Below are positions 1 through 19,312 of a stretch of DNA of 64,000 nt, one piece after another. The first letter of the stretch is position 1, and each line of letters opens with the position of its first letter. The notes under the pieces are model-generated. The model was not told the origin of the DNA. It did no database searches and was given only the letters and a program-made list of their open reading frames with translations. Source of the DNA: an uncultured Gammaproteobacteria bacterium (GTDB lineage Bacteria > Patescibacteriota > Microgenomatia > Levybacterales > UBA12049); assembly GCA_964515545.1 (NCBI GenBank), contig CAZERI010000002.1, positions 213,731 to 277,730 on the forward strand, read 5' to 3'. A program made the position numbers and the translations under genes.

Positions 1-378
1 GAAAAAAATTTTGCGTATCTCTTAAAGTTCTTCCAGAAATATCCTCAGTATTTTTTGCCTCCAATCCAAAATGAAAAAGTGAGGACACAGTGGCTTGCTT
101 TCCCAATGACAATTGTGAAAGATGCTCCATTTACCAGACTTGAACTAGTAACGTATCTTGAGCAGAATAATATTCAGACAAGACCAATTTTTACGGGTGT
201 CATCACAAAGCAGCCCGGCTTTAAGCGCATTAAATATAGGTCAGCTTCTGATTTTTCAAATGCTCAGGAAATAATGGAAAACGGCTTTGTGATAGGGTGC
301 CATCATGGATTAACAAGTGCCCACCTAGTAAGAATAAAAGAAGCATTTACAGAATTCCTAGACCGCTATAAAGACTGA
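1..378 (+). CDS. DegT/DnrJ/EryC1/StrS-family sugar aminotransferase, C-terminal fragment. Frame 1 is open from the window edge, so the gene is 5' partial.
   Basis: No stop codon in frame from nt 1. The translated C-terminus (TRPIFTGV...GFVIGCHHGLT) resembles the C-terminal small domain of PLP-dependent sugar aminotransferases of the ArnB/DegT type. It converges on the SDR gene. Confidence 0.55.
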   Translation, partial: EKNFAYLLKFFQKYPQYFLPPIQNEKVRTQWLAFPMTIVKDAPFTRLELVTYLEQNNIQTRPIFTGVITKQPGFKRIKYRSASDFSNAQEIMENGFVIGCHHGLTSAHLVRIKEAFTEFLDRYKD

Positions 379-1298
379 TACCATACAATAGTTCGTTTTA
401 GTCCCGTTTCGAGATCAGTAGCTGGTCTCCATGCAAGAAGTTTCTTGGCTTTTGTAATATCTGCTTGCCAGACAGGAGATTCATACTTTATTGCAGAGTG
501 ATCCTCTATAATCTTACTATTAGTTTTGGTGAGTTTTGAAATGATAGCGGTAACTTCTTGAGTTGTGTACTGCTTCCCGCTTCCGATATTTATTATCTCC
601 CCTGAGAGTTTTTCCCTGTATGTCATAGCTTTCATATATGCATCGATGACGTCATCAATATAAATGAAATCTCTCACATTTTTAGGGTGGGTCAGCGTTA
701 TCTTTTTATTAGTTAGTGCCTGTGTAATGACTGTACTAATAAATCTATGGGGATCATCATATGATCCAAATGGACTAAAAAGTCTCAAGGTGAGGACTGG
801 CTTATTATTTTTTTGAGCGAAGTTTTTTGCGTAGAGTGTGCTCGCTAATTTAGTTATCCCATAGGTACTCTCAGGAAAACAGCTGTCTATTTCTCTCATT
901 TTCTTATTTTTAAGTCCATATTCAGATGAACTTCCCGTATTAATAAAAAGCTTGTAAGGAATGTCCTTGGAGGCCTGTAAAAGGGTAATTGTACCTAAGA
1001 GGTTAACATTTACTACATCTTCATCAAAGCTCTCTTTTCTTCCATATATACCAATATTTGCTAGATGAAAAATATAGTCAGGTTGAATCTTTCTGAGCAG
1101 TTTTTGGAGCTGGTTTTTATCGCTGATATCGATATTATATGGTGTAGTCTTATGCAGGATATCGTTAAGTCTTATTGAGGTAGTAATAGGGCGATAAAGA
1201 ATATGGATGTCAAAAGACTTATCAAGCAGCTCCCTGACGAGATGAGATCCTATAAAGCCAGTTGCTCCAGTGACAAATGCGGTAGGCTTTTTGCTCAT
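366..1298 (-). CDS. NAD-dependent nucleotide-sugar epimerase/dehydratase (extended SDR family)
   Basis: N-terminal Rossmann motif VTGATGFIGSHLV and a YxxxK-type catalytic region. The ~310 aa length is typical of UDP-sugar 4-epimerases, 4,6-dehydratases and decarboxylases. Confidence 0.85.
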   Translation of the reverse strand: MSKKPTAFVTGATGFIGSHLVRELLDKSFDIHILYRPITTSIRLNDILHKTTPYNIDISDKNQLQKLLRKIQPDYIFHLANIGIYGRKESFDEDVVNVNLLGTITLLQASKDIPYKLFINTGSSSEYGLKNKKMREIDSCFPESTYGITKLASTLYAKNFAQKNNKPVLTLRLFSPFGSYDDPHRFISTVITQALTNKKITLTHPKNVRDFIYIDDVIDAYMKAMTYREKLSGEIINIGSGKQYTTQEVTAIISKLTKTNSKIIEDHSAIKYESPVWQADITKAKKLLAWRPATDLETGLKRTIVWYQSL

Positions 1299-2137: not shown

Positions 2138-2139
2138 AG

Positions 2140-3900
2140 TTAGTCAAGAGGATCAATAAACATATTTTTCAAAAATTCTTTTCTACTTAATGATGGTGAT
2201 AGATCTTCAATGGGTTTACCAAATTGTAATTTAGGAATTAATTTCTGTCGAGGGTTAAGATGGACATTTACGAGTACGGGTCCTTTTTCTTTAAGAGCAG
2301 ATTTGATAACAGTATCCATGGCTTTATGGTTTTTTAGATCATAGGTCTTAATGCCGTAGGCCTTTGCGACTTTAATAAAGTCAGGATGTGAGTATCCTTT
2401 GCCTGAGGCTTCAAAACGGCTGCCTAAGTAAAGTTCTTGAAACTGCTTGATGATGCCGTAGCCTTCGTTATTAAGTACAAAAATTTTTACTGGTATTTTA
2501 TAATGAGCAATTGTCTGAAGCTCTTGGATATTAATCTGAAGACTTCCGTCTCCGTCAATACAAATGATCTGCTTTTTCGAAAGAGCAAGGGATGCTCCCA
2601 TAGATGCGGGAAGGGCATATCCCATTGGGGAATTCCCAAATGCTGAAATTAGACGCTGACTGCCCTTTACCTCAAAACCCTGCATAGTCCAGGTTAAGTG
2701 TCCTCCGTCATCAGGAATAACTATCGCATTATCATCCAGAAGCTGAGAAAGTCTTTGGCTGAAGACATAGGGATTTACATATTTATCTTCTTTTTTATAT
2801 TCAGGGAGAACCATCGGATAAGTATTTTTCCAGGACAAGCATTGTTCGACCCATTCAGTGTGGTTTCCTAAATTACTTTTTATGGACTGTTTAAGCAACT
2901 CTTTAATTGCAATTTTTGCATCTGAATTGATTGCAATATCAGGGATAACTTTTTTCTTAGTAAGTTCTGAAATATCAATATCGACAATTATTTTTTTAGC
3001 TTCTCTGGCAAAGGTCTGAGGTTTACCTCCTGTTTGTCTGGTATCAAGTCTGCTTCCAATGGAAAGGAGAACATCTGCATTTTGGACAGCGAAATTTGCC
3101 GACCTATGGCCATACACACCGATTTGACCAATAAGATAAGGAAATTCATGGACAAAAAGATCTTTAGCGCTCCATGAGGTAACAACAGGAACCTTTAGTT
3201 TCAGTGCAAGCTTGAGGATATCTTTTTCTGCTTTAGCAATACGAGTTCCAAAACCGACAAGAAGGACAGGACGCTTAGCTGTCTTAAGAAGGTTGAGTGA
3301 TTTCTCAATTTTTTTAACAAGAGCACCGTCAACGATAACTTCTTTTTGTGGTGGTGTAAATCCTTTAAGAGTCCGTGGATTTATTTCAACTCTCTGGAAA
3401 TCCTGCGGGATATCGATAAGTACTGGCCCTGGCCTTCCGGATTTTGCGATGTAGGTTGCCTTCTCGAGAAGGTATCGAATGTTCTCAGGTTTATCCAGTT
3501 GAGCTGCAAATTTAGTAATCGGCTTTACTACCGATACAATATCAGTTTCTTGGAAGCCAATTTGGCGGACAGAAGAATTTCCTTTTTGTTCATATGTATT
3601 AACCTGCCCGGAGATATGGAGGACAGGAATAGAATCAAACCAAGAGCAGCAAATTCCTGTAATAAGGTTCGTAGCACCCGGACCTGAGGTTACCATCGTT
3701 GCTGCTAAATTAGGCCCGAGGCGGGAATATGCATCCGCTGCCATAGCTGCTGCCTGCTCGTGAGCGATACAGACATATCCTATATCTTTTCGTCCATGAA
3801 AGGCATCAACCACAAAAGAAATAGCTCCTCCCGTCATGAGAAATACTTCTTTAATTCCCTGTGCAGCAAGATAATCGAGTATATACTCAGCAACTAACAT
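2140..3900 (-). CDS. Thiamine-diphosphate-dependent enzyme of the acetolactate synthase large-subunit / YerE-like family
   Basis: 586 aa with three-domain ALS architecture. ThDP-binding GDG...NN motif (IDGDGSLQ...VLNNEGYG) in the C-terminal domain and N-terminal Pyr domain motifs (MTGGAISF). No ilvH, ilvC or ilvD nearby. Confidence 0.8.
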   Translation of the reverse strand: MLVAEYILDYLAAQGIKEVFLMTGGAISFVVDAFHGRKDIGYVCIAHEQAAAMAADAYSRLGPNLAATMVTSGPGATNLITGICCSWFDSIPVLHISGQVNTYEQKGNSSVRQIGFQETDIVSVVKPITKFAAQLDKPENIRYLLEKATYIAKSGRPGPVLIDIPQDFQRVEINPRTLKGFTPPQKEVIVDGALVKKIEKSLNLLKTAKRPVLLVGFGTRIAKAEKDILKLALKLKVPVVTSWSAKDLFVHEFPYLIGQIGVYGHRSANFAVQNADVLLSIGSRLDTRQTGGKPQTFAREAKKIIVDIDISELTKKKVIPDIAINSDAKIAIKELLKQSIKSNLGNHTEWVEQCLSWKNTYPMVLPEYKKEDKYVNPYVFSQRLSQLLDDNAIVIPDDGGHLTWTMQGFEVKGSQRLISAFGNSPMGYALPASMGASLALSKKQIICIDGDGSLQINIQELQTIAHYKIPVKIFVLNNEGYGIIKQFQELYLGSRFEASGKGYSHPDFIKVAKAYGIKTYDLKNHKAMDTVIKSALKEKGPVLVNVHLNPRQKLIPKLQFGKPIEDLSPSLSRKEFLKNMFIDPLD

Positions 3901-3949
3901 GATTTAAATGTATATTACTAAAGGATTATTCAAAAAACAATGGCTAACA

Positions 3950-4840
3950 CTATAGTCCGTAAACCTTTTTAATAATATGGTTGGGACGATTACGACTTTC
4001 AGTAAAAATACGGAGGATATACTCGCTTTGCATGGCAGTAATAAAGAAGAGAAGTGTAAAAAGAAGTAGAAAAATTGTCAGCTCCAGAGGATAGAAGAAG
4101 AACGAGATACTAGTTATTATCGTTGAGAGGATAAATATGATCCAGGATAATCGTAATGGCAAACTGGAAAACCCTAGGATACCATTTATAGCTACGTGCA
4201 ATGTCAGTTTAATATTTGCTTTTGATTTCCCTGCCACACGATCCGGTCTATCAAAGGGTATACCTATTTTTTTGAAACCTGGCCACATAGCTAATCCTCT
4301 AAAAAATTTATTATGTTCGGGTAGGTTTGCTAGAGTTTTATAGACTGCTTTGTCCAGCAAGCGAAAATCACTTACATTTTGAGGAACAATATTATCAGTA
4401 AGGTACGCAATAATTTTATAAAAAATAAAGGTACCAACTCTTCTGTGGAGAGGATAATTAATTCTTTTTTTTACTACACCATAGACAATGTCATAACCCT
4501 TTTGCCATTCTTTAACAAATGTAGGAATTAGTTCCGGCGGTTCCTGGAGATCGGCCATCATGACAATTACCGCCTCACCTTTCGCAAAGTCTAACCCAGT
4601 GAAAATACTCTCATCACACCCATTATTTTTAGACATCTCAATAACTTTAAATCTTTTATCTTTTTTTCGTGCTTTGATCAGTTCATGGATAGTATTATCA
4701 CGAGATCCATCATCTACAAAAATGACTTCAAAATCAAAACTACTATATGAGTCCATGAAAGAGGTTAATCTTTTCGTAAGAGGGGAGATCATGGGCTCCT
4801 CATTATAGGCAGGAATAACGATAGAGAGTAGTTTTCTCAT
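3950..4840 (-). CDS. GT2 polyprenyl-phosphate sugar transferase (ArnC/DPM1/GtrB-like)
   Basis: N-terminal GT-A motifs (IVIPAYNEE, FVDDGSRDNT, DxD-like MADLQ) followed by two C-terminal transmembrane helices. This is typical of enzymes that make polyprenyl-P-sugar donors. Confidence 0.75.
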   Translation of the reverse strand: MRKLLSIVIPAYNEEPMISPLTKRLTSFMDSYSSFDFEVIFVDDGSRDNTIHELIKARKKDKRFKVIEMSKNNGCDESIFTGLDFAKGEAVIVMMADLQEPPELIPTFVKEWQKGYDIVYGVVKKRINYPLHRRVGTFIFYKIIAYLTDNIVPQNVSDFRLLDKAVYKTLANLPEHNKFFRGLAMWPGFKKIGIPFDRPDRVAGKSKANIKLTLHVAINGILGFSSLPLRLSWIIFILSTIITSISFFFYPLELTIFLLLFTLLFFITAMQSEYILRIFTESRNRPNHIIKKVYGL

Positions 4841-4892
4841 GTCGAGACCATTGTAGAGAAATATGCCTGAGATAGCAATATAATTTGTTTGT

Positions 4893-6107
4893 ATGCGCTA
4901 CAATAGAGAAATGTCAGCAAGAATATTTGCGTACATTGGGATTGTCATTACACTTTATTATGTAATCTATGCAATTTTTAATGGCATCATCCATCCTATC
5001 CCTGCTTTAGGAGACAGTTGGGATTATCATATCCCTATTGCAAAAATGATCCTAACGGGTGAAATCTTTTCTCCGGTACATCCTCTGATTACACAGTGGT
5101 ATTATCCAGGAAGCAGTGAACTGTTTAATTCATTATTCTTATTACTTCATATTCCCTTAACTCTCACTAATGTTTTGGCAGTTATTGTGTTATTTTTTAT
5201 TTGCTGGAAGTTGGGGGGAATAACTGGACTTAATTATTATGAAAGTATTTTCTTTGCATCAACAATTATTACACTAAATGTTTTGGTGCGGTGGTTCAAT
5301 TCAGTAAATATAGATATATGGCTGGTAAATTTTTTCTTAATAAGTATTGTCCTTCTTGAGAGGCCTCGGCAGTCTTTAAAATATTTCTTATTTTTAGGTT
5401 TTATTTTGGGTATGATAATAGGGACTAAATATACAGGATTTTATTATCTTTTACTGCTTTTTATTTGTTATAGAAGAAGATTTTTGCGGGATTTTAAGAT
5501 AAAGAAATTAATAGCTTTTTTAGTTCCATTTACTATTTTTGGATTATCGTGGTATATCAGAAATATTATTCTCTTCCATAATCCTTTTTATCCTCTTTAT
5601 TTTATCGGTCTTCCTTACGACATTAATTTTGATAAGCAGGTCTGGAATATATTTCTTTCCTATCCTAAGGATATCATCGACGCAGCATTTGGAGAGTATA
5701 AGATATGGCTTATAAGTATTCCCTTTGTTATTGTTCGCCTTTTAAAAGGTTTTAAAACTCCTATCAAAAAATATCTATTATCCTTAGAAAATCATAGATT
5801 AGAACTTATCTGTATTTTAACATTCATTATTTTTTTAATTTCGCCTACTGATACGAAGTCATGGATTATGGTATCAAGTATGCGTTATTCATATGCTTCC
5901 TTTATCTTAGGGATTCTTATAGTCTTTCTTTATTGCAAAAAAATAAAGAAGTTAGAGTGGCTTTTTCTCATAGCGGTTTCTTCCATGATCATGGTCACTT
6001 CATTTGACTATTATCCAAAACTCACTATTATGTATGGGGTAATTTCTTTGATGTGTTGTTATTTTCTTGAACGATATAAAAAGAAATTACAAAAATTGTT
6101 TAGCTAA
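4893..6107 (+). CDS. Polytopic integral membrane protein, candidate GT-C-fold glycosyltransferase
   Basis: About 10 predicted hydrophobic helices across 404 aa. First gene of the co-directional glycan operon. No soluble catalytic domain recognised. Confidence 0.45.
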   Translation: MRYNREMSARIFAYIGIVITLYYVIYAIFNGIIHPIPALGDSWDYHIPIAKMILTGEIFSPVHPLITQWYYPGSSELFNSLFLLLHIPLTLTNVLAVIVLFFICWKLGGITGLNYYESIFFASTIITLNVLVRWFNSVNIDIWLVNFFLISIVLLERPRQSLKYFLFLGFILGMIIGTKYTGFYYLLLLFICYRRRFLRDFKIKKLIAFLVPFTIFGLSWYIRNIILFHNPFYPLYFIGLPYDINFDKQVWNIFLSYPKDIIDAAFGEYKIWLISIPFVIVRLLKGFKTPIKKYLLSLENHRLELICILTFIIFLISPTDTKSWIMVSSMRYSYASFILGILIVFLYCKKIKKLEWLFLIAVSSMIMVTSFDYYPKLTIMYGVISLMCCYFLERYKKKLQKLFS

Positions 6108-6108
6108 T

Positions 6109-7056
6109 ATGAAAACATCGTTAATAGCCACTGTTCTCAATGAAGAAGAAAATATCCTTTTATTTTTAGAGTCTCTTCTTATTCAGTCTCGTATGCCAGA
6201 TGAGGTAGTGATTGTGGATGGAGGATCAGAGGATAGAACAGTTACTATTATTAAGAATTTTATTCAAAAACACTCATTGCCGTATAAGCTACTGCTCTCA
6301 ACTAAGGAAGGGAATCGTTCTGTCGGAAGAAATGAAGCTATTAGAAAAACCCATGGTGAAATTATCCTTATCTCTGATCCTGGCTGTGTTCTTGATAAAA
6401 ATTGGATTAAAGAGATGATGATCCCGATTACCGATAAAAAAGCTGATGTAGTGGCTGGCTATTACAGCGCTAGAAGTGAAAATATTTTTCAAAAATGTTT
6501 AGTCCCTTATGTCTTAGTCATGCCGGATAAAGTTAATGAAAAAGACTTTTTGCCTGCTACTAGATCAATGGCAATTAAAAAAATAATATGGGAGGAGATG
6601 GGAGGATTTGATGAGCGATATTCTCATAATGAAGATTATGTTTTTGCTAAGAAACTTAAAAAAGAGAAAAAAAAGATCATATTTACACGGAAGGCAATTG
6701 TTTACTGGATTCCGCGGAGAAATCTGCTGGAGGCATTTTTGATGTTTCAAAGGTTCGCATATGGAGATATGGAAGCATCAATACTCCGGCCAAAAGTAGT
6801 ATTGATCATCTTTAGGTATCTTGCAGCTTTACTCTTTATTATTTTTGCTATTACAAAGCATACTATACTATGGTGGTTGGTACTCTTAGCGGGAATTATC
6901 CTTTACAGTATATGGTCTATCTATAAAAATTATAGCTATATTAAAGACGCAAGGGCAATTTACTATCTCCCCCTTATTCAATTCACTTCAGATATAGCAG
7001 TCCTACTAGGAAGTTGTTCTGGTTTTCTAGCCAGCAGGCGGGTAAAGAAGCTATAA
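6109..7056 (+). CDS. GT2 family glycosyltransferase with C-terminal membrane anchor
   Basis: The ATG at 6109 gives MKTSLIATVLNEEENI (a GT-A start), then VVIVDGGSEDRT and a DxD region (ISDPG). The ORF-track start at 6067 would overlap the upstream gene by 41 nt, and 6109 directly follows its TAA stop. Confidence 0.7.
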   Translation: MKTSLIATVLNEEENILLFLESLLIQSRMPDEVVIVDGGSEDRTVTIIKNFIQKHSLPYKLLLSTKEGNRSVGRNEAIRKTHGEIILISDPGCVLDKNWIKEMMIPITDKKADVVAGYYSARSENIFQKCLVPYVLVMPDKVNEKDFLPATRSMAIKKIIWEEMGGFDERYSHNEDYVFAKKLKKEKKKIIFTRKAIVYWIPRRNLLEAFLMFQRFAYGDMEASILRPKVVLIIFRYLAALLFIIFAITKHTILWWLVLLAGIILYSIWSIYKNYSYIKDARAIYYLPLIQFTSDIAVLLGSCSGFLASRRVKKL

Positions 7057-7064
7057 TAGAACGG

Positions 7065-10113: not shown

Positions 10114-10114
10114 T

Positions 10115-10930: not shown

Positions 10931-10931
10931 T

Positions 10932-13130
10932 ATGAAAAATCCTGAAGTCAGCATAATAATTGTCCAATACAAAGTTAAAGAGTTATTACTAGAATGTATT
11001 ACATCACTTAAAAAAGCGATTAAAGCTGTTTCTTATGAGATTATTGTTGTCGATAATGAAGAATCAAGAGATATTAAAAACACTATTAAAAAGGTGTATC
11101 CGGATGTCATCTACATTTCAAATAAAAATAGAGGGTTTGGTCAAGGGAACAATGTAGCTGCAAAAAGGGCGAGAGGAAAGTATCTTTTTTTGCTCAATCC
11201 TGATACCACTGTGTTTGAAAAGACAATTAAAGAGCAGGTTGAATTTTTAGAAAAGAATAGTGATGTAGCAATAGTTGCTCCTTTGCTGCTCCATGCAGAT
11301 AAAAAACCATTTTCTCTCCAGGGAATGGCAATACTAACTCCGCTACGAGGAGTGGTAAGTCTTTCTTTTCTTAATAAATTATTTCCTAATAATCCTATTT
11401 CGAAAGGGTATTGGCTGCCTGACTGGGATAGAAAAAAAGTAAAAGAAGTAGGTGTTGTGCCAGGTACAGCATTTATGATGAGGAAAGATCTCTATGAAAA
11501 AGTTGGAGGATTTGATGAAAAGTTTTTTCTTTATTTTGAGGAATTTGACCTCTGTAAAAGAGTAAAAGAACTAGGATATCGAATCTGTATGCTTCCTCAG
11601 GCAAAAGTTATCCATTTATGGGGGGAGAGTACGAAGCAAAGATCTGATATCTCTCAAATTTTTCAGGATAGCAGGTTTTATTATTTTTCCAAACACTATG
11701 GCTTTTTTAAGGCATTTCTTATCGAGTGTGTTGCACGTTTTAGTAAGGAAGCTGCTGCAGTTACAGTAATTATTATCTGCTCGTCACTCTTATCGTTGTG
11801 GAAGATCGCATCAGGTATGCTTTTTATTGGTGACCAAGCATGGTTTTATCTCTCTGCTCGGGATTTATTACTTGGGCATTCATTTCCTCTTGTTGGGATT
11901 ACTTCAAGTCACACATGGCTCCATCAGGGACCATTATGGACATATCTCCTAGCTATCCCAATGTGGATAGGAGGATACAGTCCATTATCAGGAGCTTATC
12001 TTTCAATTACAATACATGCTTTAACAATATTTTTCTTTTATATCTTTGGAAAAAAAATATTCTCAAAACAAGTCGGTCTAGTGGGGGCAATCTTGTATGC
12101 TTTTTCTCCCTACATAATACATTTATCACGTATGCCTTATCATACCTCCCCTATTCCTCTTCTGACAATTGTTTACTTTTATTTTTTAACACAATGGGTA
12201 AAGGGAAGGACAGTCTATCTGCCGTTTTTAATCTTTCTTATTGCCGTACTTTATAATTTTGAATTAGCTACTGTTATCCTGATAGCACCTCTCCTCCTTG
12301 TAGGGATATACGGTATTTGGAGGAGATCTGACTGGATTACCAAACTTACTAAAAGAACTATTATTTGGTCGATAGTTTTGGGATGTATTCCTCTTCTACC
12401 TGTTATTCTTTATGATCTTAACCACGGTTTTAAGCAGACAGTTGGATTTACTGCATGGCTTTTTTATTCAGGATTTCGTTCTCTTTTTCATATTTCATCA
12501 CAAAGTACTCAAATGAATTCTCTTGGGTTAGTTTTGGGATTCCTTTTAGAGAGGTTTCAGTGGCTAGTTTTTCTTCCAAATAAGATCCTTAGTACTCTTA
12601 TCATACTGGGAAGTTTTGGAGGACTGAGTGCTGTAATATGGAAACAATACAAAAGCAATACTCAGTATAGTTCGTATCTTCTCCTTTTAGTCTGGATTCT
12701 GGCTTCAATTGGTATTCTTATCGTTAATAAAATACCATCAGATGCTTATTTACCCATTATTTTTCCAGCAGTATTTTTCAGCATTGCATTAACGATGAGT
12801 AACTTTTTCTCAAAAAAAATAATGATGACAGTAATTATTTTCTTACTACTCTTAAATATAGTTGCTCTCCTCAAGCATAATTACTCTATGATTCCACAGA
12901 GAGATATAGCTCTCAGTCAACGAGTAGCAGCAGCCGATACGCTAGTTGCCTCTTCCCACGGCAGATCATTTGCACTGCGAGGAAAGGGAGCAGGGAGTCA
13001 ATTTGAGTCATTTCTGATGCCTTATGAGTATGTACTGTGGTACAAGAAACATCCTGTTATCCGAGATTCAGAATTAAAGTATATAATAAGAGAAAGCAAT
13101 ACTCAGATAATAATCACGCGAAATGATTAG
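10932..13130 (+). CDS. Fusion protein: N-terminal GT2 glycosyltransferase domain plus C-terminal GT-C-like (ArnT/PMT-type) polytopic membrane domain
   Basis: The first ~280 aa carry GT-A motifs (VSIIIVQYK, VVDNEES, NPDT). The remaining ~450 aa hold more than 10 hydrophobic helices, with an acidic first-loop motif (GDQAWFYLSARD) resembling GT-C enzymes that use polyprenyl-P-sugar donors. Confidence 0.65.
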   Translation: MKNPEVSIIIVQYKVKELLLECITSLKKAIKAVSYEIIVVDNEESRDIKNTIKKVYPDVIYISNKNRGFGQGNNVAAKRARGKYLFLLNPDTTVFEKTIKEQVEFLEKNSDVAIVAPLLLHADKKPFSLQGMAILTPLRGVVSLSFLNKLFPNNPISKGYWLPDWDRKKVKEVGVVPGTAFMMRKDLYEKVGGFDEKFFLYFEEFDLCKRVKELGYRICMLPQAKVIHLWGESTKQRSDISQIFQDSRFYYFSKHYGFFKAFLIECVARFSKEAAAVTVIIICSSLLSLWKIASGMLFIGDQAWFYLSARDLLLGHSFPLVGITSSHTWLHQGPLWTYLLAIPMWIGGYSPLSGAYLSITIHALTIFFFYIFGKKIFSKQVGLVGAILYAFSPYIIHLSRMPYHTSPIPLLTIVYFYFLTQWVKGRTVYLPFLIFLIAVLYNFELATVILIAPLLLVGIYGIWRRSDWITKLTKRTIIWSIVLGCIPLLPVILYDLNHGFKQTVGFTAWLFYSGFRSLFHISSQSTQMNSLGLVLGFLLERFQWLVFLPNKILSTLIILGSFGGLSAVIWKQYKSNTQYSSYLLLLVWILASIGILIVNKIPSDAYLPIIFPAVFFSIALTMSNFFSKKIMMTVIIFLLLLNIVALLKHNYSMIPQRDIALSQRVAAADTLVASSHGRSFALRGKGAGSQFESFLMPYEYVLWYKKHPVIRDSELKYIIRESNTQIIITRND

Positions 13131-13890
13131 TGGAATCGTCCTAGTAAAAAATCAACAGGAACAACTGGCTCAATGCTTAGATGCATTATCTTTTTGTGAG
13201 GAAATTATCGTGATTGATGATAACTCTGTAGATGATTCTGCACAGGTAGCAGCAAAAAAAGGGGCAAGAGTCTATAAAAGAAAACTTAATAATGATTTTG
13301 GGACACAAAGAAATTGGGCAATGGAAAAAGCAAAAAATGAATGGATATTATTTGTAGATGCAGACGAGATTGTGTCACGAGAGCTGGCGACTGAACTCTA
13401 TCAGCAAACGACCCAGTTTTTAACAGACGTAAATGGATTTTATATAAAACGTGTTGATTATCTTTGGGGGAAGAGGCTACGTTTTGGCGACGCAGGAAGA
13501 AGCAGGATTTTACGGCTAGCAAAAAAGTCTAAGGGTACATGGCGAGGCAGGGTACATGAAAGGTGGGATGTGATAGGAGAGATTGGTATATTAAAAAATC
13601 CGCTTTTCCATTATCCTCATCCGACAATATACGAATTTCTTAAAGAAATTAATTATTATTCCTCTTTAAGAGCTCAAGAGCTTTTTGATAAAAAAGTATC
13701 AGTAAGCATTCTTGCAATTATTTTTTATCCTTTTGGGAAATTTATTATAAATTATATAGTGAAATTAGGATTTCTTGATGGTACTGTTGGGATAATCTCT
13801 GCACTGATGATGTCATTTCATTCATTTTTGGTTAGAGGAAAACTATGGCAATTAAAGCATAAAAAACGAGTCTATGAATTTGGAAATTAA
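13123..13890 (+). CDS. GT2 family glycosyltransferase (WaaE/KdtX-like)
   Basis: ISGIVLVKNQQE, IIVIDDNSVDDS and VDADE motifs. The start overlaps the upstream stop. Confidence 0.7.
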   Translation: MISGIVLVKNQQEQLAQCLDALSFCEEIIVIDDNSVDDSAQVAAKKGARVYKRKLNNDFGTQRNWAMEKAKNEWILFVDADEIVSRELATELYQQTTQFLTDVNGFYIKRVDYLWGKRLRFGDAGRSRILRLAKKSKGTWRGRVHERWDVIGEIGILKNPLFHYPHPTIYEFLKEINYYSSLRAQELFDKKVSVSILAIIFYPFGKFIINYIVKLGFLDGTVGIISALMMSFHSFLVRGKLWQLKHKKRVYEFGN

Positions 13891-13926
13891 ACATAAACAT
13901 ATTTTTTTTGTAGTTCCTTTCTGTCT

Positions 13927-15753
13927 TTGGATAGCCACTTTATTTCTTCTCTATTTCACTCATCTTTTATGCAAAAATGGTTTATGTTTACTTCATATAT
14001 AAAACCCCTCCTCTCAAAGAACATTTTTAGTCATATAGGTATTGCCTGTCTATTTGCTTTTATCAGTATATTTATTACCTATCCTCTTGTTTTGCATATT
14101 GGAGATTATACAAGTGGGATGGGAGATGAATTAATTTTATCCTACATTCAAAACTATGTAATTAATGCATTATTCCATCATCCATTTACTCTTTTTAATG
14201 CTCCTCATTTTTTCCCCTACAGTAATTCGCTCGCTTATTCGGACTCACTTATTACGTCAAGCCTGTTACTCTCGTTTCCAGCGTGGTTTTTTCATCAGCC
14301 AATTGCAATTCATAATTTAACATTACTTTTCTCATTAACAAGTCTTAGTTACTCTGTCTATCTTTTGACAAATTATATAGTAAAAGACAAAATAGTAGCA
14401 GTTTTGGCAGGATTCCTCGTCATTTTTTCTCCCGTTACTCTGGATAAATACATCCATCTCCAAGTTCTTTTTATTTTTTTTGTGCCTTTAAGTATTTATT
14501 TTTTCCTTAGATTTCTAGAAGAAAAGAAGCTGAAGTTATTTATTTTATGCCTCATCTGTTTTGATCTCCAAACACTCAATAGTTTTCTACCTGGATATTT
14601 TATCGCTTTTAGCCTAGTTACAATTTTCCTCGTATTTATCCTTACGAGCAGACAAAATATAAGAGAATATGTATCTAAAAAATCTATGTTGGCGCTTGTA
14701 TGTAGTCTGATAATTCTTCTCCCGTTTATTCTTCCATATTATCAAGTGGCAAGTGAGTTCTCTTATTCAAGAGATATTAGAGATTCCATTCATTTTGCCA
14801 ATCAGCCTGAGGATTTTCTTTTTTCTTCTCAGTTTACAAAACTTTCTTCATTTTTGACTAATTTTTGGCATAGAGATTCCTACCCCAAGTCAATCTCTTT
14901 TAAGAATGGATTTCCCGGGATAGTTCTCCTAGGACTGAGTCTTACCTCATTAATATATATCTTTAACAATAGAAGAAAATTAGATTATAAAATCATCTCA
15001 CTTTCTTTGATAGCTTGCGTAGGGTTTATCTTAAGCCTAGGACCATTTTTGCATATTAATAGACATACAATTCACCATCCTTTCCCCATACCTCTTCCTT
15101 ATGCTCTTTTTTACTATCTGTTACCTGGATTTAATGGTATGCGTAATTCTGCACGTTGGGAAGAACTTTTTATCATAGGAGCTTCGATCGGAGGTACGGT
15201 GATACTTCATCACATCATTAAAAAATATTCTTCCTCAATCAGGCTAATTATAGTAGGAGTACTCATGGGAATTATTATAGGAGAGTACACCCCATCTATT
15301 ACTTTTCAGTCTTTACCAGAAGTGAAAAACTTTCCTTTAGAATATGAGTACAGTAAAACTCTACCGGATGCAAGAATTATTGAGATGCCTATTTATAACT
15401 GGAATATGTCTCCCTATGCCGGACAAGAATACATAAGGCAATACTACTCTATAAATGGATTTCAGAAGCGCATGAATGGTGTCAGCGGGTTCTCACCGCC
15501 ACCTTGGCAAGCTGAGGTTACTCATCTCCTTAAGACATTTCCTGATGAAACTTCACTCACACGGATTAAGAAAATGGGGATAAATACTATCATTGTTCAT
15601 CCTGGAGAGTATAATATGCTTTATCATGATAAAGTAAAAATAGACAATATTTCTTTACTGCCAGGGGAAACGGTGATAAGAATACTTGATAAATCAAAGA
15701 GTGTTACGAAAATCAAAAGTTATCCATCAGCTGTAATATACAGTATAAAATAA
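13927..15753 (+). CDS. Polytopic membrane protein with C-terminal soluble domain, candidate GT-C-fold glycosyltransferase
   Basis: More than 10 TM helices in the first ~430 aa. It has an acidic first-loop motif (GDYTSGMGDELILSY) and a ~170 aa hydrophilic C-terminal domain. This matches ArnT/PMT/YfhO-like architecture. Confidence 0.45.
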   Translation: MDSHFISSLFHSSFMQKWFMFTSYIKPLLSKNIFSHIGIACLFAFISIFITYPLVLHIGDYTSGMGDELILSYIQNYVINALFHHPFTLFNAPHFFPYSNSLAYSDSLITSSLLLSFPAWFFHQPIAIHNLTLLFSLTSLSYSVYLLTNYIVKDKIVAVLAGFLVIFSPVTLDKYIHLQVLFIFFVPLSIYFFLRFLEEKKLKLFILCLICFDLQTLNSFLPGYFIAFSLVTIFLVFILTSRQNIREYVSKKSMLALVCSLIILLPFILPYYQVASEFSYSRDIRDSIHFANQPEDFLFSSQFTKLSSFLTNFWHRDSYPKSISFKNGFPGIVLLGLSLTSLIYIFNNRRKLDYKIISLSLIACVGFILSLGPFLHINRHTIHHPFPIPLPYALFYYLLPGFNGMRNSARWEELFIIGASIGGTVILHHIIKKYSSSIRLIIVGVLMGIIIGEYTPSITFQSLPEVKNFPLEYEYSKTLPDARIIEMPIYNWNMSPYAGQEYIRQYYSINGFQKRMNGVSGFSPPPWQAEVTHLLKTFPDETSLTRIKKMGINTIIVHPGEYNMLYHDKVKIDNISLLPGETVIRILDKSKSVTKIKSYPSAVIYSIK

Positions 15754-15754
15754 T

Positions 15755-17353
15755 ATGTTTAGTCTCGCTTTTTTAATTGGCCTCTATGCAAATTGTATCT
15801 TCCTTTTAGGAATGGCTCATTTTCTGACAAAACCAATTCTTATTGTATTTAGTACCCTTTATATACTTTGTTCAGTCTTATTTTGGAATAGATTCGACAA
15901 AAAAGTTAATTGGGCAGGAATAAAAAAAGAAGTACTAGATAATTTTAACAAGCATACACTATGGGTAGTAGGACTTATTAGTGCTTTTTCTATTATGGTC
16001 CTAGGAAGTTTAGTCCCTGAGACTGCATTTGATGCGCTATGGTACCATCTGACTCTACCGAAGCTCTACTTGGCGATGGGGGGAATATCTTTTATTCCAG
16101 GAAGTCTCTTTTATTATTCAGCGATGCCTAAATTAGGAGAGATGCTCTATATCCCTGCCATTGCTCTACAAGGAGATATTCTGGCTCATAGTATCCATCT
16201 AGCATTCGCAGTTCTTACTGGTATCGCAATTTATGAATTGATTAAGAAATTTTCATCCCCTTATTTCGCGATTATCGGAGTTGTTATCTTTTTTAGTAAT
16301 ATCGTAGTCCTTTGGGAAGCAACAACAGCTTATGTAGATCTTATCAGGGCTTTTTATGAAGTCATGGCTTTATGGGGAATTATTAACTATATAGAGAAAA
16401 AGGAAATAAAATGGTTAGTAGAGTCAGCTTTTCTCTTTGGGTTAGCAGTTGAAACTAAATTACTGGCGATGATGAGCCTCCCGATTTTTGTAACTGCATT
16501 ATTTTTCTTTGGATTTAAGAGAAGGACAGAGAGACTCTTCGATTGTATCCTTTTTATTTTTCTTTCTTTACTTGTATCTCTTGGCTGGTTCGCTCTTTCG
16601 TATAGTACTACTGGAAATCCCTTGTATCCACTATTTGGTAATTATTCAGTTGTGATAGGGAAGGATGTCCTAGCCTTTCCCCAGACTATAACGGATATGG
16701 CAACAGTCTTTGTCTCATCTGCTGATCCTATTTCTCCAATTTATCTCATGCTAGTTCCTCTCCTCTTACTCGTATGGAGAAAGCTAGGCAGACAGGAGGT
16801 AATGCTAGTAATTTTATCTTTAGTAAGTCTCTTGATGTGGACAGTAACTCCTAAAACTGGAGGAGGAAGATTTATTTTGCCTTACTTGCCGTTATTTAGT
16901 CTAACAGCGGGAGTTGTCCTCTCTAAACTTAAAAATGAAAAGCAATTGCTGAAGATAAGTCTGGGCAGTATCTTACTGGTATTTATTGTCTCAATTGCAT
17001 ATAGAGGAGTTGCCCAGATGCGGACTCTACCTGTAGTGTTGGGTGTGGAATCGAGAGAGTCGTACTTAACTAAGAGTCTTAATTTTCAGTTTGGTGATTT
17101 TTATGATACTGATAATAAAATAAAGGATATGGTAGGCCCTAGTAAGAAAGTACTTCTCTATGGCTTTCATAATCTTTACTACTTAGATGTACCTTTTATC
17201 GACTCATCCTATGTTCAAAGAGGAGATACATTTGACTTTGTAGCAACTCAGCATGCAGATCTTCCTAAACGATTTTCCTATTGGCAGCCTATCTACTACA
17301 ATAAAACGACAGGTGTTACATTATACACATTAGGCCAGGAATGGGTGTATTAG
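15755..17353 (+). CDS. Polytopic membrane protein, candidate GT-C-fold glycosyltransferase (ArnT/PMT-like)
   Basis: 532 aa with many TM helices, an early loop carrying ETAFDALWYHLTLP and a C-terminal hydrophilic domain. It is a paralog-like arrangement with the preceding gene. Confidence 0.45.
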   Translation: MFSLAFLIGLYANCIFLLGMAHFLTKPILIVFSTLYILCSVLFWNRFDKKVNWAGIKKEVLDNFNKHTLWVVGLISAFSIMVLGSLVPETAFDALWYHLTLPKLYLAMGGISFIPGSLFYYSAMPKLGEMLYIPAIALQGDILAHSIHLAFAVLTGIAIYELIKKFSSPYFAIIGVVIFFSNIVVLWEATTAYVDLIRAFYEVMALWGIINYIEKKEIKWLVESAFLFGLAVETKLLAMMSLPIFVTALFFFGFKRRTERLFDCILFIFLSLLVSLGWFALSYSTTGNPLYPLFGNYSVVIGKDVLAFPQTITDMATVFVSSADPISPIYLMLVPLLLLVWRKLGRQEVMLVILSLVSLLMWTVTPKTGGGRFILPYLPLFSLTAGVVLSKLKNEKQLLKISLGSILLVFIVSIAYRGVAQMRTLPVVLGVESRESYLTKSLNFQFGDFYDTDNKIKDMVGPSKKVLLYGFHNLYYLDVPFIDSSYVQRGDTFDFVATQHADLPKRFSYWQPIYYNKTTGVTLYTLGQEWVY

Positions 17354-18549
17354 CTATGAAATATATACTTATGGTTATTATGGCGGTTGCCTTTGTCCTA
17401 GGGCAGTTTGCTCGCCTTCAATTAGGGAATGTAGGTATTACATTACTAGATAGTGCAGTAGTACTTTTTATTTTGATATGGGTTGTAAGGTATCTTATAA
17501 CCCGAAAAACACAGTTTTCTCTCTCAGAGTCAGAAAAAATTATAGGAGGATTTATTATCTCCGGATTAATTGGTCTGGCACTTTTTTCTCGTAATTTGTC
17601 ATTAGAACAGATAGGAATTTCATCGCTATATTTAGTTCGGCTACTTTGCTATTTATGTCTGTTTTATGTAGTGAAAGATATGGCAGGGCAAGATAAAAAA
17701 AAGCTGGTGAATGGCCTTGTGATAAGTGGTGCAGGTATTGTCGGAATTGGTTTTATTCAATATCTTTTCTATCAATCTCTTGGAAATTTACGTTACTTAG
17801 GCTGGGATGAGCATCTTTACCGCCTTTTCTCTACATTTCTTGATCCAAACTTCGCGGGAGCATTCTTTGCCTTGTTTTTACTTATGACTTTAGAGGTGTT
17901 CCTAACTCTTAAAAGTACCCCAAAGCGAATCTTAGCAGGATCCCTGGTAGTCTTAACCTTTGCTGCGGAATTATTAACATATTCAAGAACTGGCTTTATT
18001 ATGCTTTTGGTAGGATTGGGAGTATTCCTTTTAAGTATGGCGGGTAAGAAAATCACAATGGTAATACTCCTCTGCTGTATAGTGTTTTTTTTGGCAGCAG
18101 CTAACTCAAAAATAGAAGGGCTTAATCCTCTCCGTGTTGTATCATCTGAGGCTAGATTAGAATCTGCTCGGGAAGCAGTGTCAATTATTAGTAAATATCC
18201 ACTTTTTGGAGTTGGGTACAATGCATATCGTTATGCACAGGTACAAATGGGGTTGAGAGAAGAGTCACCTCAAGTTCAAAGTCATGCCGATGCAGGGACA
18301 GATAATAGTTACCTTTTCATACTGGCAACAACAGGAATTGCAGGAGGGGTATTTTTTAGTCTATGGATGGTAAGAGTATTAAAGGATTCATGGGACAGCT
18401 CATTAAAAGGGATATGGTTAGGACGTACTTTTTTTGCATCACTCATCGCAGTTCTGTGTGGAAGCCTTTTTCTTAATATCCTTTTCTATCCAATGATTTT
18501 GGGGTGGTTGGTAGTAGAAGGTGCAATTATTCGGAGTAGGAGACCTTAA
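17341..18549 (+). CDS. O-antigen ligase / Wzy-like membrane protein
   Basis: About 10-12 TM helices. A central periplasmic loop is followed by a YSRTGFIMLLVGLG segment typical of the O-antigen ligase (Wzy_C) domain. Last gene of the operon. Confidence 0.55.
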   Translation: MGVLAMKYILMVIMAVAFVLGQFARLQLGNVGITLLDSAVVLFILIWVVRYLITRKTQFSLSESEKIIGGFIISGLIGLALFSRNLSLEQIGISSLYLVRLLCYLCLFYVVKDMAGQDKKKLVNGLVISGAGIVGIGFIQYLFYQSLGNLRYLGWDEHLYRLFSTFLDPNFAGAFFALFLLMTLEVFLTLKSTPKRILAGSLVVLTFAAELLTYSRTGFIMLLVGLGVFLLSMAGKKITMVILLCCIVFFLAAANSKIEGLNPLRVVSSEARLESAREAVSIISKYPLFGVGYNAYRYAQVQMGLREESPQVQSHADAGTDNSYLFILATTGIAGGVFFSLWMVRVLKDSWDSSLKGIWLGRTFFASLIAVLCGSLFLNILFYPMILGWLVVEGAIIRSRRP

Positions 18550-19237: not shown

Positions 19238-19312
19238 AATAACGATTGGTTATTGTCTTAGCCATTCGGTTGGTCTCTAGTATAGCACTAAAGCCGATGA
19301 ACTTGGATATTG

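Follow-up and report, generated by a model that had tools for sequence, protein, structure and literature searches.

The window analysed here, a stretch of 64,000 nucleotides from a member of the Levybacteria (Patescibacteria/CPR), opens with the larger part of a surface-glycan assembly locus of ~25 kb. The genome is tiny, as the initial annotation had supposed, and no description of this Levybacteria locus was found in the literature searched, in keeping with its view of an undescribed system. Two divergent operons make up the locus within the window, one on the minus strand (366-4840) and one on the plus strand (4893-18549), and the dense glycan locus that had been recognised is thus confirmed, with the correction that the plus block holds 11 genes and not 12. 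These encode three free GT2 glycosyltransferases (the count rises to five only if the fusion and a GtrB-like protein of the minus strand are included), one GT2-GT-C fusion, three further GT-C-fold proteins where two had been proposed, two Wzx flippases, one methyltransferase and one Wzy_C protein, the fusion, the flippases, the methyltransferase and the ligase-like protein having been read correctly. The junctions of the plus block are +1, +8, -1, -4, +1, +1, -8, +93, +1 and -13 nt; nine of the ten lie within +8 to -13 nt, so that the earlier statement that genes abut or overlap by 1-13 nt holds except at the junction of +93 nt. Starts placed at 6067, 7014 and 13927 by the longest-ORF rule are likely wrong, and identical public contigs call these genes from 6109, 7065 and 13984. 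On the same public contig the locus runs on for ~6 kb upstream of window position 1, where the genes encode a PTPS_related/PMT_2 protein of 605 aa and a PMT_2-like one of 509 aa, which add two GT-C-like genes to the set, along with a GT4 and a second methyltransferase. Domains were assigned by Pfam and NCBIfam profile scans, with scores judged against the family cut-offs.

The polytopic membrane proteins g404, the fusion, g589 and g532 are all GT-C by fold or profile, as had been anticipated, and a crude hydropathy scan, which undercounts g404, gives ~5 to 10 hydrophobic segments for each of them. The smallest, g404 (4893..6107, plus strand; 404 aa), matches no family in the Pfam copy used; its AF2 model (pLDDT 92.8) contains about a dozen long helices, and GT-C enzymes account for all of its 14 best PDB matches (ALG12, STT3, PimE, ArnT, ALG9, Pmt4), at a marginal Foldseek E of ~1e-3 and a TM of ~0.45. 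The fusion (10932..13130, plus strand) joins a cytoplasmic GT2 domain (residues 1 to ~260; Glycos_transf_2, 70.6 bits) to a PMT_2-type GT-C membrane domain (~275-732; 32.7 bits vs a cut-off of 26.1). It has 1475 homologues, the best 120 of which are all ~730 aa long with identical architecture, and its GT-C part stands alone in six related loci. The protein g589 (13984..15753, plus strand) combines an STT3/DPY19-like GT-C fold with an extracytoplasmic alpha/beta domain at its C-terminus and belongs to a DUF6311/DUF7657-type family with 16,406 cluster representatives at E<=1e-3; its AF2 model (pLDDT 89.5) matches STT3 (8e-9), DPY19 (2e-8), AglB (3e-6), AftD (1e-5) and PglB (4e-5) in Foldseek searches of the PDB, with EmbA/B as further structural neighbours. 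Finally, g532 (15755..17353, plus strand; PMT_2, 25.0 bits for this copy) is of the PMT/ArnT type: 23 of 24 orthologues match PMT_2 (best 2e-9), five match PMT (1.7e-11) and two a TMEM260-like family, and the family profile has its top PDB match in ArnT 5EZM (0.006). An invariant Asp right behind a TM helix is found in every GT-C family, namely D41 of g404 (in GDSWDYHIP), D301 of the fusion (with Q302 and W304 likewise invariant, just past the first TM), D48 of g589 (in GDELL, where E49 is almost invariant) and D93 of g532 (with E89 also invariant, in PE..FDALWYH). The four proteins had been described as three to four GT-C paralogs; their number is four, but they are not close paralogues, the best E in an all-against-all BLASTP being 8e-4, and their families are connected at the profile level only (hhalign ~95%; 95.5% for g404 against the g532 family).

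In structure, g589 comes closest to GT-Cs that modify proteins (STT3, DPY19, AglB and PglB), and it may be asked whether the locus glycosylates surface proteins such as pilins or an S-layer, with g532 as a PMT-like protein O-mannosyltransferase, g589 acting on polypeptide in the manner of STT3 or DPY19, and/or the Wzy_C protein serving as an O-oligosaccharyltransferase of the PglL/PilO type. The PMT and TMEM260-like matches of the g532 orthologues are consistent with this. However, likeness of GT-C fold says nothing on the acceptor, and the WWD motif is absent from all 46 members of the g589 family. Further evidence on both sides comes from an adjoining gene. Ig236 (18527..19237, minus strand; Glucodextran_B, 85 bits), which carries two Ig-like domains and a membrane anchor (N-terminal TM 19-37), could be substrate or partner of such a system; its gene overlaps and converges on the Wzy_C gene and keeps this convergent position in 22 related loci. 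It is tied to the locus by synteny only, and its sole conserved N-x-S/T lies in a generic 'D.AGN' Ig-domain turn and is not a D/E-x-N-x-S/T sequon. We therefore regard protein glycosylation as improbable, a judgement that also takes in two of the glycosyltransferases considered below.

Among the GT2 proteins, the minus-strand enzyme at 3950..4840 is a polyprenyl-phosphate hexose synthase of the GtrB/CsbB/PgfS type, composed of a GT2 catalytic domain and two C-terminal TM helices (234-270 in the hydropathy scan). Its PDB matches are GtrB 5EKE (1e-53, full length, residues 5-296), ArnC (1e-28) and DPMS (7e-17), and it misses the cut-offs of both PgfS (198 vs 500 bits) and ArnC (108 vs 529 bits). 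The initial annotation was thus right about the kind of enzyme, a synthase of polyprenyl-phosphate sugar, but the nearer kin is GtrB, with ArnC more distant. PgfS, which serves adhesin glycosylation in S. mutans, is its best NCBIfam model and would suit protein glycosylation, were the score not so far under the cut-off. The other three give generic GT2 matches only, and the synthase assignment, judged from sequence, is well founded for the GtrB-like protein alone. GT2b (10115..10930, plus strand; Glycos_transf_2, 122 bits) is closest in the PDB to GalT1 (4e-23) and chondroitin synthase. GT2c (13123..13890, plus strand; 255 aa; Glycos_transf_2, 61 bits), which has a C-terminal TM hairpin (192-230), sits immediately upstream of g589 and is found in 29 related loci; its top PDB matches, GmaR (1e-16) and SunS (3e-9), are protein or peptide glycosyltransferases, a further point for a protein acceptor. 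GT2a (6109..7056, plus strand) is membrane-anchored (two TM segments, residues 244-286 in the numbering of the longer ORF) and matches Glycos_transf_2, Glyco_tranf_2_3 and Glyco_transf_21, together with weak matches to the lipid-glycosylating models HpnI and CruG. If this GT21-like enzyme made a glycolipid anchor, which Wzx1 would flip and the GT-Cs extend outside from polyprenyl-phosphate sugars, the product could be a membrane-anchored lipoglycan like LM/LAM or a glycosylated LTA; the recurring triad g404-GT2a-Wzx1 and the structural likeness of g404 to PimE and of g589 to AftD and EmbA/B point the same way. Every match of GT2a is weak and generic, however, and no feature points to a lipid acceptor, which makes a lipoglycan very unlikely.

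The two flippases are divergent members of the MOP family (30% identity over 151 aa). Wzx1 (7065..8282, plus strand; Polysacc_synt_3, 222 bits; NF007773, 174 bits, under its cut-off of 273) occurs in 14 related loci, whereas Wzx2 (8282..9529, plus strand; Polysacc_synt, 101.6 bits; 12 TM segments) is lineage-specific and absent from the related loci, as is the SAM-dependent methyltransferase that follows (9526..10113, plus strand; Methyltransf_11, 43 bits). No GtrA-type flippase was found at the locus. The Wzy_C-domain membrane protein (17341..18549, plus strand; 64.9 bits vs a cut-off of 31.7; 11 TM segments) has no PDB sequence match, and its sequence fits a polymerase, a ligase or an O-oligosaccharyltransferase alike; its place behind g532 is kept in related loci.

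The remaining genes of the window's left end concern nucleotide sugars, and it is on these that the initial annotation, which proposed an aminoarabinose (Arn) logic with a DegT/ArnB-like aminotransferase, has to be revised most. Only the last 125 codons of the DegT-family gene lie in the window (1..378, on the plus strand, converging on the minus-strand SDR gene), and this C-terminal fragment scores 87.6 bits with NF011936 RfbH; the full gene encodes 405 aa on the same public contig (L002:10921-12138), and the protein scores 357 bits with RfbH and 104 bits with ArnB (cut-off 631). Because a His stands in its SFYGSH motif where the Schiff-base Lys of aminotransferases is expected, the protein is read as a sugar 3-dehydratase (RfbH/E1- or ColD-like), and since it has only two Cys it would lack the iron-sulfur site of E1. 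An Arn-type pathway, in which an amino-pentose would be passed from undecaprenyl phosphate to a lipid, could draw on the presence of a DegT-family gene, an SDR, an ArnC-related GT2 and PMT_2/ArnT-like GT-Cs. It was rejected on four defining features: the dehydratase in place of an aminotransferase, an SDR scoring 32 bits on the ArnA-type model (cut-off 294), the lack at the locus of ArnA formyltransferase, ArnD deformylase and ArnE/F, and a GT2 far nearer to GtrB than to ArnC. In addition, the window holds MurT/GatD, familiar from walls of the Gram-positive type, and no gene for lipid A was noticed there. We accordingly give the Arn pathway almost no credence, although the general logic behind the proposal, a polyprenyl-phosphate-sugar synthase working with GT-C transferases outside the membrane, holds.

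Two minus-strand genes had been left out of that reading, PanB (1298-2137) and a ThDP-dependent, acetolactate-synthase-like enzyme (2140..3900). The latter has three TPP domains, and its best NCBIfam match is the AHAS large subunit (460 bits, the cut-off of 538 not being reached); it is read as a putative YerE-type sugar branching enzyme. Relatives of it were located in 33 loci, each 6 kb or longer; 21 of these have an RfbH-like gene no more than 5 kb away, 22 have an SDR and 11 a GtrB-like GT2, and all 23 dehydratase neighbours carry the His-for-Lys motif. The family thereby matches the arrangement of ThDP enzyme and dehydratase in the yersiniose (YerE) system (PMC9306805). The extended SDR (366..1298, minus strand; Pfam Epimerase, 174 bits), of the NDP-sugar epimerase/dehydratase/reductase type and under all NCBIfam equivalog cut-offs, is 45% identical to the SDR immediately downstream of ThDP-enzyme relatives in L077, L079 and L082, and is put forward as a YerF-like side-chain reductase, with a 4,6-dehydratase as another possibility. 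Taken together, the 3-dehydratase, the YerE-like enzyme, the SDR and PanB probably make a yersiniose-type 3,6-dideoxy-4-C-acyl-branched hexose. Against this, the locus does not encode the nucleotidyltransferase, the 4,6-dehydratase or the E3-type reductase (the RfbH partner), all of them needed ahead of the 3-dehydratase.

Set beside about 30 Levyibacteriota genomes, the locus falls into two layers, a class-wide conserved core and a lineage-specific insertion. The core, which adjoins the ATP-synthase operon, consists of (GT2-)GT-C, GT2c, g589, g532 and Wzy_C, often together with g404-GT2a-Wzx1, a triad kept in the same order in L009, L023, L028 and L073; the core order is maintained in about 30 species at 35-60% identity, and its synteny next to the atp genes could partly be general genome collinearity of the class. 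The insertion comprises the GtrB-like synthase, Wzx2, the methyltransferase, GT2b and the nucleotide-sugar module; it is found in L073, an 87% relative, and is missing from the ~30 species save for weak RfbH-, SDR- and GtrB-like matches (22-36% identity). The strain-variable left half and the lower GC of the locus (0.351 vs 0.396 in the rest of the window) are reminiscent of O-antigen and capsule loci, and together with the Wzx pair, the Wzy_C protein and the several cytoplasmic GT2s they would suit a conventional Wzx/Wzy heteropolysaccharide (EPS, capsule or secondary cell-wall polymer), in which a primer from elsewhere in the genome would start repeat units on Und-PP, Wzx would flip them and Wzy_C would polymerise them, the GT-Cs merely decorating side branches, much as the model for the B. 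anthracis secondary cell-wall polysaccharide pairs Wzx/Wzy with a GT-C decoration system. Yet it is the GT-C genes, and not Wzx and the GT2s, that form the conserved part, the opposite of what is expected of optional decorators. Moreover, no priming phosphoglycosyltransferase, Wzz/PCP (chain-length regulator or polysaccharide co-polymerase) or LCP family was found among the scanned window proteins or in the annotation of the 9 kb upstream, so that the locus does not look like the standard Wzx/Wzy O-antigen cluster that would have spoken against the initial annotation. We consider this alternative unlikely, while giving it some weight.

With moderate confidence, we favour instead a multiplied 'multi-component transmembrane glycosylation' system on polyprenyl-phosphate donors, consisting of the conserved core and the lineage-specific insertion with its probable yersiniose-type branched-deoxysugar module. 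The gene content fits the known general scheme of a GT-A enzyme, a Wzx-type flippase and a GT-C, and assembly on polyprenyl monophosphate, as shown for the lactococcal PSP, fits because the primer family is missing from the proteins and annotation scanned. We infer the donor lipids, the order of the steps, the sugars and the acceptor, which may be a cell-wall polymer, a lipid or a protein, as follows. Membrane-anchored GT2s would first put sugars on polyprenyl phosphate at the cytoplasmic face, a role that is well founded for the GtrB-like enzyme and is extended to GT2a, to GT2c and to the fusion's GT2 half; soluble GT2s may then lengthen a lipid-linked oligosaccharide, and the Wzx-type flippases would carry the lipid-linked sugars outward. 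There, g404, the fusion, g589, g532 and the two upstream GT-C-like proteins would transfer sugars to a growing extracytoplasmic acceptor, and a polymerising or ligating step by the Wzy_C protein would follow.

PanB (3-methyl-2-oxobutanoate hydroxymethyltransferase; minus strand; Pfam Pantoate_transf, 360.7 bits) is oddly placed inside a sugar operon. In the YerE/ErwE scheme, the 2-oxoacid donor is the product of a neighbouring enzyme, and PanB possibly provides a hydroxymethylated 2-oxoacid as branch donor; it passes the equivalog cut-off for a true PanB (TIGR00222, 325 bits vs 207.6) and may also be a housekeeping gene that landed in the operon. Among the related loci, PanB adjoins the ThDP enzyme only here and in L073.

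The locus consists of two divergent gene blocks lying 52 bp apart (4841-4892), as delimited by an ORF listing and by Pfam and NCBIfam scans. The minus-strand block comprises an extended SDR of 310 aa (366-1298), PanB (1298-2137; 325 bits against an equivalog cut-off of 207.6), an acetolactate-synthase-like ThDP enzyme (2140-3900) that scores 460 bits on the AHAS equivalog, under its cut-off of 538, and a GtrB-like GT2 (3950-4840) that carries a pair of TM helices at its C-terminus. Positions 1-378 (+) of the window encode the C-terminus (last 125 codons) of a DegT-family protein, convergent with the SDR gene; the full gene, encoding 405 aa, is found at L002:10921-12138 (-), L002 being a public contig that carries the identical locus together with its upstream sequence. 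The plus-strand block (4893-18549) holds 11 genes, in the order g404, a polytopic protein (4893-6107), GT2a (6109-7056), Wzx1 (7065-8282), Wzx2 (8282-9529), a methyltransferase (9526-10113), GT2b (10115-10930), a GT2+PMT_2 fusion (10932-13130), GT2c (13123-13890), the polytopic proteins g589 (13984-15753) and g532 (15755-17353), and a Wzy_C protein (17341-18549), with successive gaps of +1, +8, -1, -4, +1, +1, -8, +93, +1 and -13 nt. The initial annotation had described this gene set in a way that was largely real, with several wrong counts, among them the slightly inaccurate 12 genes and five GT2s of the plus block, and with no mention of PanB or the ThDP enzyme.

According to the stored upstream annotation, the glycan locus extends about 6 kb past window position 1 on the same contig. 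This stretch carries a PTPS_related/PMT_2 GT-C of 605 aa (L002:12218-14035, +), a GT4 (L002:13962-14969, -), a second PMT_2-like membrane protein of 509 aa with a weak PMT_2 match (L002:14991-16520, -) and the second methyltransferase of the locus (L002:16559-17326, +), and the whole locus therefore measures about 25 kb with six GT-C-like genes, four of them inside the window. The 3' ends of the upstream GT-C and GT4 genes overlap by 74 nt. At 0.351, the GC content of the locus is lower than that of the remainder of the window (0.396). Exact matches to the locus occur on several metagenome contigs. Named homologues assign the source lineage to Candidatus Levybacteria (Levyibacteriota), within the Patescibacteria, and related contigs reach about 1-1.6 Mb. 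Counts of promoters (71 vs 67.7 in shuffles) and terminators (8 vs 12.9) in a scan of 1-19600 were not above those of shuffled sequences, and thus give no information on operon boundaries; three tRNAs were the only matches of the Rfam and tRNA scans, which revealed neither riboswitches nor other RNAs within the locus.

All four polytopic candidates in the window (g404, the fusion, g589 and g532) are GT-C proteins, as the initial annotation had supposed, each being recognized either by the PMT_2 profile or by its predicted fold. Single-sequence searches of the PDB with g404, g589, g532 and the Wzy_C protein returned nothing meaningful, so that fold and profile methods were needed. The fusion matches PMT_2 with 32.7 bits, over the gathering cut-off of 26.1, and g532 with 25.0 bits, just under it; among the orthologues of g532, 23 of 24 match PMT_2 (best 2e-9) and five match PMT (1.7e-11), PMT_2 matches being of a kind that does not separate ArnT from PMT-like enzymes. 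The family profile of g532 has ArnT 5EZM as its top PDB match, with an E-value of just 0.006. The protein g404 belongs to no Pfam family, and its AlphaFold model, built from 46 homologues (pLDDT 92.8), has exclusively GT-C proteins as its 14 best PDB matches (ALG12, STT3, PimE, ArnT, ALG9, Pmt4, ALG3 and AglB among them), with probability 1.00, yet with E-values of merely about 1e-3 and TM scores of about 0.45. The model of g589 (pLDDT 89.5) matches STT3 with 8e-9 over about 700 columns and DPY19 with 2e-8, followed by AglB, AftD and PglB.

In each of the four families an invariant Asp directly follows a TM helix, and a DxD-like acidic motif is present in a putatively extracytoplasmic loop. 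The motifs are GD41SWDYH in g404, PE89..FD93ALWYH in g532, GD301QxWFY in the fusion and GD48E49LL in g589, in which D48 is invariant and E49 nearly so; judged by the positive-inside rule, the loops bearing them would face outward. The four genes are not recent paralogues, a possibility that was rejected because the best BLASTP E-value among their products is 8e-4. At the profile level links were obtained between g404 and g532 (95.5%), g532 and the fusion (94.7%), and g589 and the fusion (95.5%), with none detected between g404 and g589. The g589 family counts 16,406 representatives at 50% clustering, among which no characterised member was found, and the architecture of the fusion is a common one among Patescibacteria, with 1475 matches, the best 120 of which are all about 730 aa long.

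A protein glycosylation system is one alternative that the locus may represent, and the similarity of g589 to STT3 bears on it. Oligosaccharyltransferases of the STT3/PglB/AglB group carry a WWDYG motif in their C-terminal domain. Their architecture, a multi-TM GT-C core followed by a C-terminal extracytoplasmic domain, is present in the g589 model, which places an alpha/beta domain at residues 440-589 with a weak match to the C-terminal domain of AglB. The WWD motif (WW[DE]) is absent from all 46 family members, and the assignment of g589 as an oligosaccharyltransferase was rejected on that ground. Ig236 (18527-19237, -) was considered as a substrate of N-glycosylation. This protein is anchored in the membrane and has two Ig-like domains; its gene converges on that of the Wzy_C protein with a 23-nt overlap and is retained there in 22 Levybacteria loci. 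The sole conserved N-x-S/T of Ig236 belongs to the "D.AGN" turn that is generic to Ig-like domains, and was therefore rejected as evidence of a substrate role.

To assess the conservation of the locus, the g589 profile was run against a genome collection, and every locus protein was then searched by tblastn. About 30 Levyibacteriota species share, at 35-60% identity, the order (GT2-)GT-C, GT2c, g589, g532, Wzy_C and convergent Ig236, followed by the ATP-synthase operon, and two further look-ups agree with this. The GT-C of the fusion is free-standing in six loci, while g404 occurs in about ten, in varying position and orientation, and the triad g404-GT2a-Wzx1 in four. By the same tblastn, the compared Levyibacteriota genomes lack the dehydratase (the DegT-family protein), SDR, PanB, ThDP enzyme, GtrB-like GT2, Wzx2, methyltransferase and GT2b, except for weak RfbH-, SDR- and GtrB-like matches at 22-36% identity; these genes recur in L073, a relative with 87% identity. 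Since the core order is shared and the accessory genes are absent from relatives, the locus can be described, from these comparisons, as a conserved GT-C core joined to a variable accessory part. Extra paralogues of the g589 family also occur at other sites of Levybacteria genomes, away from core neighbours, in L018, L020, L022, L024, L029, L036, L037 and L040.

The accessory part is where a resemblance to the aminoarabinose (Arn) pathway had been perceived, and this resemblance did not survive closer comparison. In that pathway, the PLP aminotransferase ArnB has a catalytic Lys and acts on a UDP-4-keto-pentose, ArnA is a UDP-GlcA decarboxylase fused to a formyltransferase, and ArnC transfers Ara4FN to undecaprenyl phosphate. 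The DegT-family protein scores 357 bits on the RfbH model, versus 104 bits on the ArnB model (cut-off 631), and in its motif SFYGSH a His replaces the Schiff-base Lys of aminotransferases. It contains two Cys in total and therefore would not possess the E1 iron-sulfur ([2Fe-2S]) site, so that it is read as a ColD-like variant of the ColD/E1-type 3-dehydratases. The SDR has no formyltransferase domain, scores 32 bits on the ArnA-type model NF008872 (cut-off 294), and might be a 4,6-dehydratase, though it falls under every cut-off. The GT2 at 3950-4840 matches GtrB 5EKE over its full length (1e-53), with ArnC more distant (1e-28), and fails the ArnC model NF007986 (108 bits vs a cut-off of 529). 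Neither ArnA nor the ArnD deformylase nor the ArnE/F flippase was found among the locus proteins in the Pfam and NCBIfam scans, and no lipid A genes were seen in the window. A true Arn pathway is thus effectively excluded, membership failing on four defining features. The DegT enzyme is a predicted dehydratase rather than ArnB, the GT2 is GtrB-like, and the host is a CPR bacterium. What remains of the analogy is its abstract logic, namely a modified nucleotide sugar, a GT2 loading it onto polyprenyl phosphate, and a PMT/ArnT-type GT-C acting outside. The outline of lipid-linked donors, GT-C enzymes and a CPR surface glycan was in this sense rightly drawn, and the Arn comparison itself was wrong.

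A different affiliation of the sugar module is suggested by the ThDP enzyme, which contains three TPP domains. A metagenome scan yielded 70 related loci, and context was counted on the 33 of at least 6 kb: an RfbH-like gene lies within 5 kb in 21/33, an SDR in 22/33 and a GtrB-like GT2 in 11/33. The His motif is present in all of the RfbH-like neighbours (23/23), and the dehydratase relatives adjoining the enzyme in other loci mostly read SFYP[AP]HH. None of ilvN, ilvC and ilvD is annotated among the genes neighbouring the ThDP enzyme, and a role as housekeeping ilvB is disfavoured by the genomic neighbourhoods of its relatives. In yersiniose biosynthesis, CDP-4-keto-3,6-dideoxyglucose receives a branch derived from pyruvate through YerE, and YerF reduces the product; for the erwiniose cluster, it has been proposed that a longer 2-oxoacid donor comes from an aldolase encoded alongside (PMC9306805). 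The present module shares with these clusters (YerE/YerF, ErwE/ErwF/ErwI) an AHAS-like ThDP enzyme beside a His-for-Lys 3-dehydratase and an SDR and, with the erwiniose cluster, an extra adjoining enzyme acting on 2-oxoacids (PMC9306805). It differs from them in that the extra enzyme is PanB and not an aldolase, that the dehydratase has no E1 cysteine set, and that the early genes are missing: hexose-1-P nucleotidyltransferase, 4,6-dehydratase and E3 reductase are absent from the window and the upstream 9 kb. On domains and gene neighbourhood, compared with the published description of YerE, the ThDP enzyme is read as YerE-like. The bona fide-looking PanB gene (1298-2137, -) sits between this enzyme and the SDR in a reduced CPR genome, and occurs beside the ThDP enzyme here and in L073 only. 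By analogy, PanB may supply a hydroxymethylated 2-oxoacid as branch donor; it may equally be a misplaced housekeeping (stray pantothenate) gene.

In multi-component transmembrane glycosylation, a GT2 of the GtrB/CsbB/GacI type works together with a flippase (GtrA- or Wzx-type) and a GT-C, for example GtrV, YfhO or GacL (PMC8035078). The scheme of a membrane-linked GT-A, a GtrA-/Wzx-type flippase and a GT-C is the best fit for the present locus. A GT-A of the GtrB/CsbB type is present as the GtrB-like GT2, whose activity is predicted and whose gene is the divergent neighbour of the GT-C gene g404; two MOP/Wzx proteins are present, with no GtrA. The TM hairpin of the GtrB homologue, the Wzx-type flippases and the outer-loop Asp motif of the GT-C are thus shared with the known systems (PMC8035078). 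Those systems have one GT-C, whereas here there are four in the window and six in the locus, the four belonging to mutually remote families; one is fused to a GT2, and a Wzy_C protein stands in the conserved core. The theme of GT2, flippase and GT-C would be multiplied, several GT-C genes having a membrane-anchored GT2 alongside: the GtrB-like GT2 lies divergent from g404, GT2a comes after g404, one GT2 is joined to its GT-C in the fusion, and GT2c stands ahead of g589 and g532. Among these GT2s, it is the GtrB-like protein alone that its sequence demonstrably marks as a lipid-phosphate-sugar synthase, GT2a, GT2b and GT2c having generic GT2 matches only.

An elaborated form of this scheme, the lactococcal polysaccharide pellicle (PSP), is the closest precedent (PMC10821137). 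There a GT2 starts an oligosaccharide on C55-P, which is extended in the cytoplasm and flipped by a Wzx-like protein, and GT-C enzymes polymerise and attach it outside; the "dual-chain" assembly genes encode WpsA/B, WpsC-F, the Wzx-like WpsG, and the GT-C enzymes WpsH and WpsJ (PMC10821137). The GT2 start on polyprenyl monophosphate, Wzx-type flipping and outer GT-C would be common to both, and the PSP cluster needs no phosphoglycosyltransferase primer (PMC10821137). Unlike in PSP, no WpsB/GacJ-like small partner was identified here, there are no rhamnan genes, the GT-C families are others, and Wzy_C is present.

The question of the primer also bears on another possibility, that the locus specifies a standard Wzx/Wzy polymer decorated by GT-C enzymes. 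As in O-antigen or capsule clusters, Wzx, Wzy_C and several GT2s occur together with sugar-modifying genes, the GC is low and the gene set variable, and the Wzy_C domain (64.9 bits) is one common to polymerases, WaaL ligases and PglL O-oligosaccharyltransferases. Unlike in such clusters, the conserved core is made of GT-C genes; no initiating phosphoglycosyltransferase of the WbaP/PglC or WecA/TagO type was found among the scanned proteins of the 64-kb window or in the upstream 9-kb annotation, although a copy may lie elsewhere in the genome, and the window proteins scanned include no family of chain-length regulator (Wzz/PCP) or LCP ligase. The missing phosphoglycosyltransferase would be accounted for under the PSP-like scheme because a GT2 starts the chain on C55-P. 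Lipoglycan assembly may likewise be considered. The mycobacterial arabinogalactan/LAM machinery (PimE, EmbA-C, AftA-D) uses polyprenyl-phosphate donors, and the use of several GT-C in series outside the membrane with lipid-phosphate sugars is also what is proposed for the present locus, whose proteins have PimE, AftD and Emb among their structural matches. This likeness is one of fold only (TM about 0.3-0.5), no DprE or Ppm1 equivalents were seen, and the CPR genes, by contrast, share a single operon with Wzx and Wzy_C.

Most CPR/Patescibacteria are uncultured and, to our knowledge, they rely on hosts or neighbouring cells; of the chemistry of their envelope almost nothing is known. Having the same place and order in about 30 species-level genomes of a class with reduced genomes, the gene cluster qualifies as a strong candidate for a core component of the envelope, which might serve in attachment, phage reception or immune-like recognition. 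Its points of interest are the class-wide GT-C core, an uncharacterised bacterial GT-C family, STT3/DPY19-like and counting over 16,000 cluster representatives, together with the abundant GT2-GT-C fusion, and the possibility that PanB beside a YerE-like enzyme points to a new branched-sugar route; if the product is an ordinary decorated polysaccharide, the value would be limited to better annotation. A far-reaching extension, which we hold tentatively and consider rather unlikely as a whole, is that Levybacteria, and perhaps other Microgenomates, share a class-wide conserved, possibly essential, nearly all-GT-C extracytoplasmic glycan assembly line, in which the STT3/DPY19-like family and the "make-and-use" fusion would build an undescribed kind of envelope polymer or glycoconjugate, fed in this lineage by a new acyl-branched deoxysugar pathway with PanB making the 2-oxoacid donor for the YerE-like enzyme. 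No description of the locus was found in the literature searched on CPR/Patescibacteria in combination with GT-C, O-antigen ligase or DUF6311.

Elsewhere the window carries housekeeping genes, including those for tRNA-Thr, pyrE/F/D, ATP synthase, DnaE, GatCAB, MurT/GatD, PolX, CTP synthase, LexA, UvrB and glycolytic enzymes. The tRNA-Thr (CGT) gene (19312-19385, -) directly follows the locus, between Ig236 and pyrE. The pyrE, pyrF and pyrD-like genes (19437-21978, -) adjoin the ATP-synthase operon, pyrE occupying that position in just some related loci; de novo pyrimidine genes are, as far as we know, not typical of CPR genomes. A MurT/GatD pair for lipid II amidation, found with Gram-positive-type cell walls, lies at 36029-38130 (-). 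An ORF of 204 aa (28177-28791, -) aligns with the first half alone of MFS_1 (model positions 6-172 out of 347), and a truncated or split transporter gene is one possible explanation. In its longest form, a 349-aa ORF without Pfam match (42339-43388, +) overlaps at its start with tRNA-Gly (42325-42397, +), and its true start is therefore probably further downstream; the CTP synthase ORF that comes next (43297-45120) looks over-extended at its 5' end. A GGDEF diguanylate cyclase (32084-33022, -) is encoded between DnaE and GatB.
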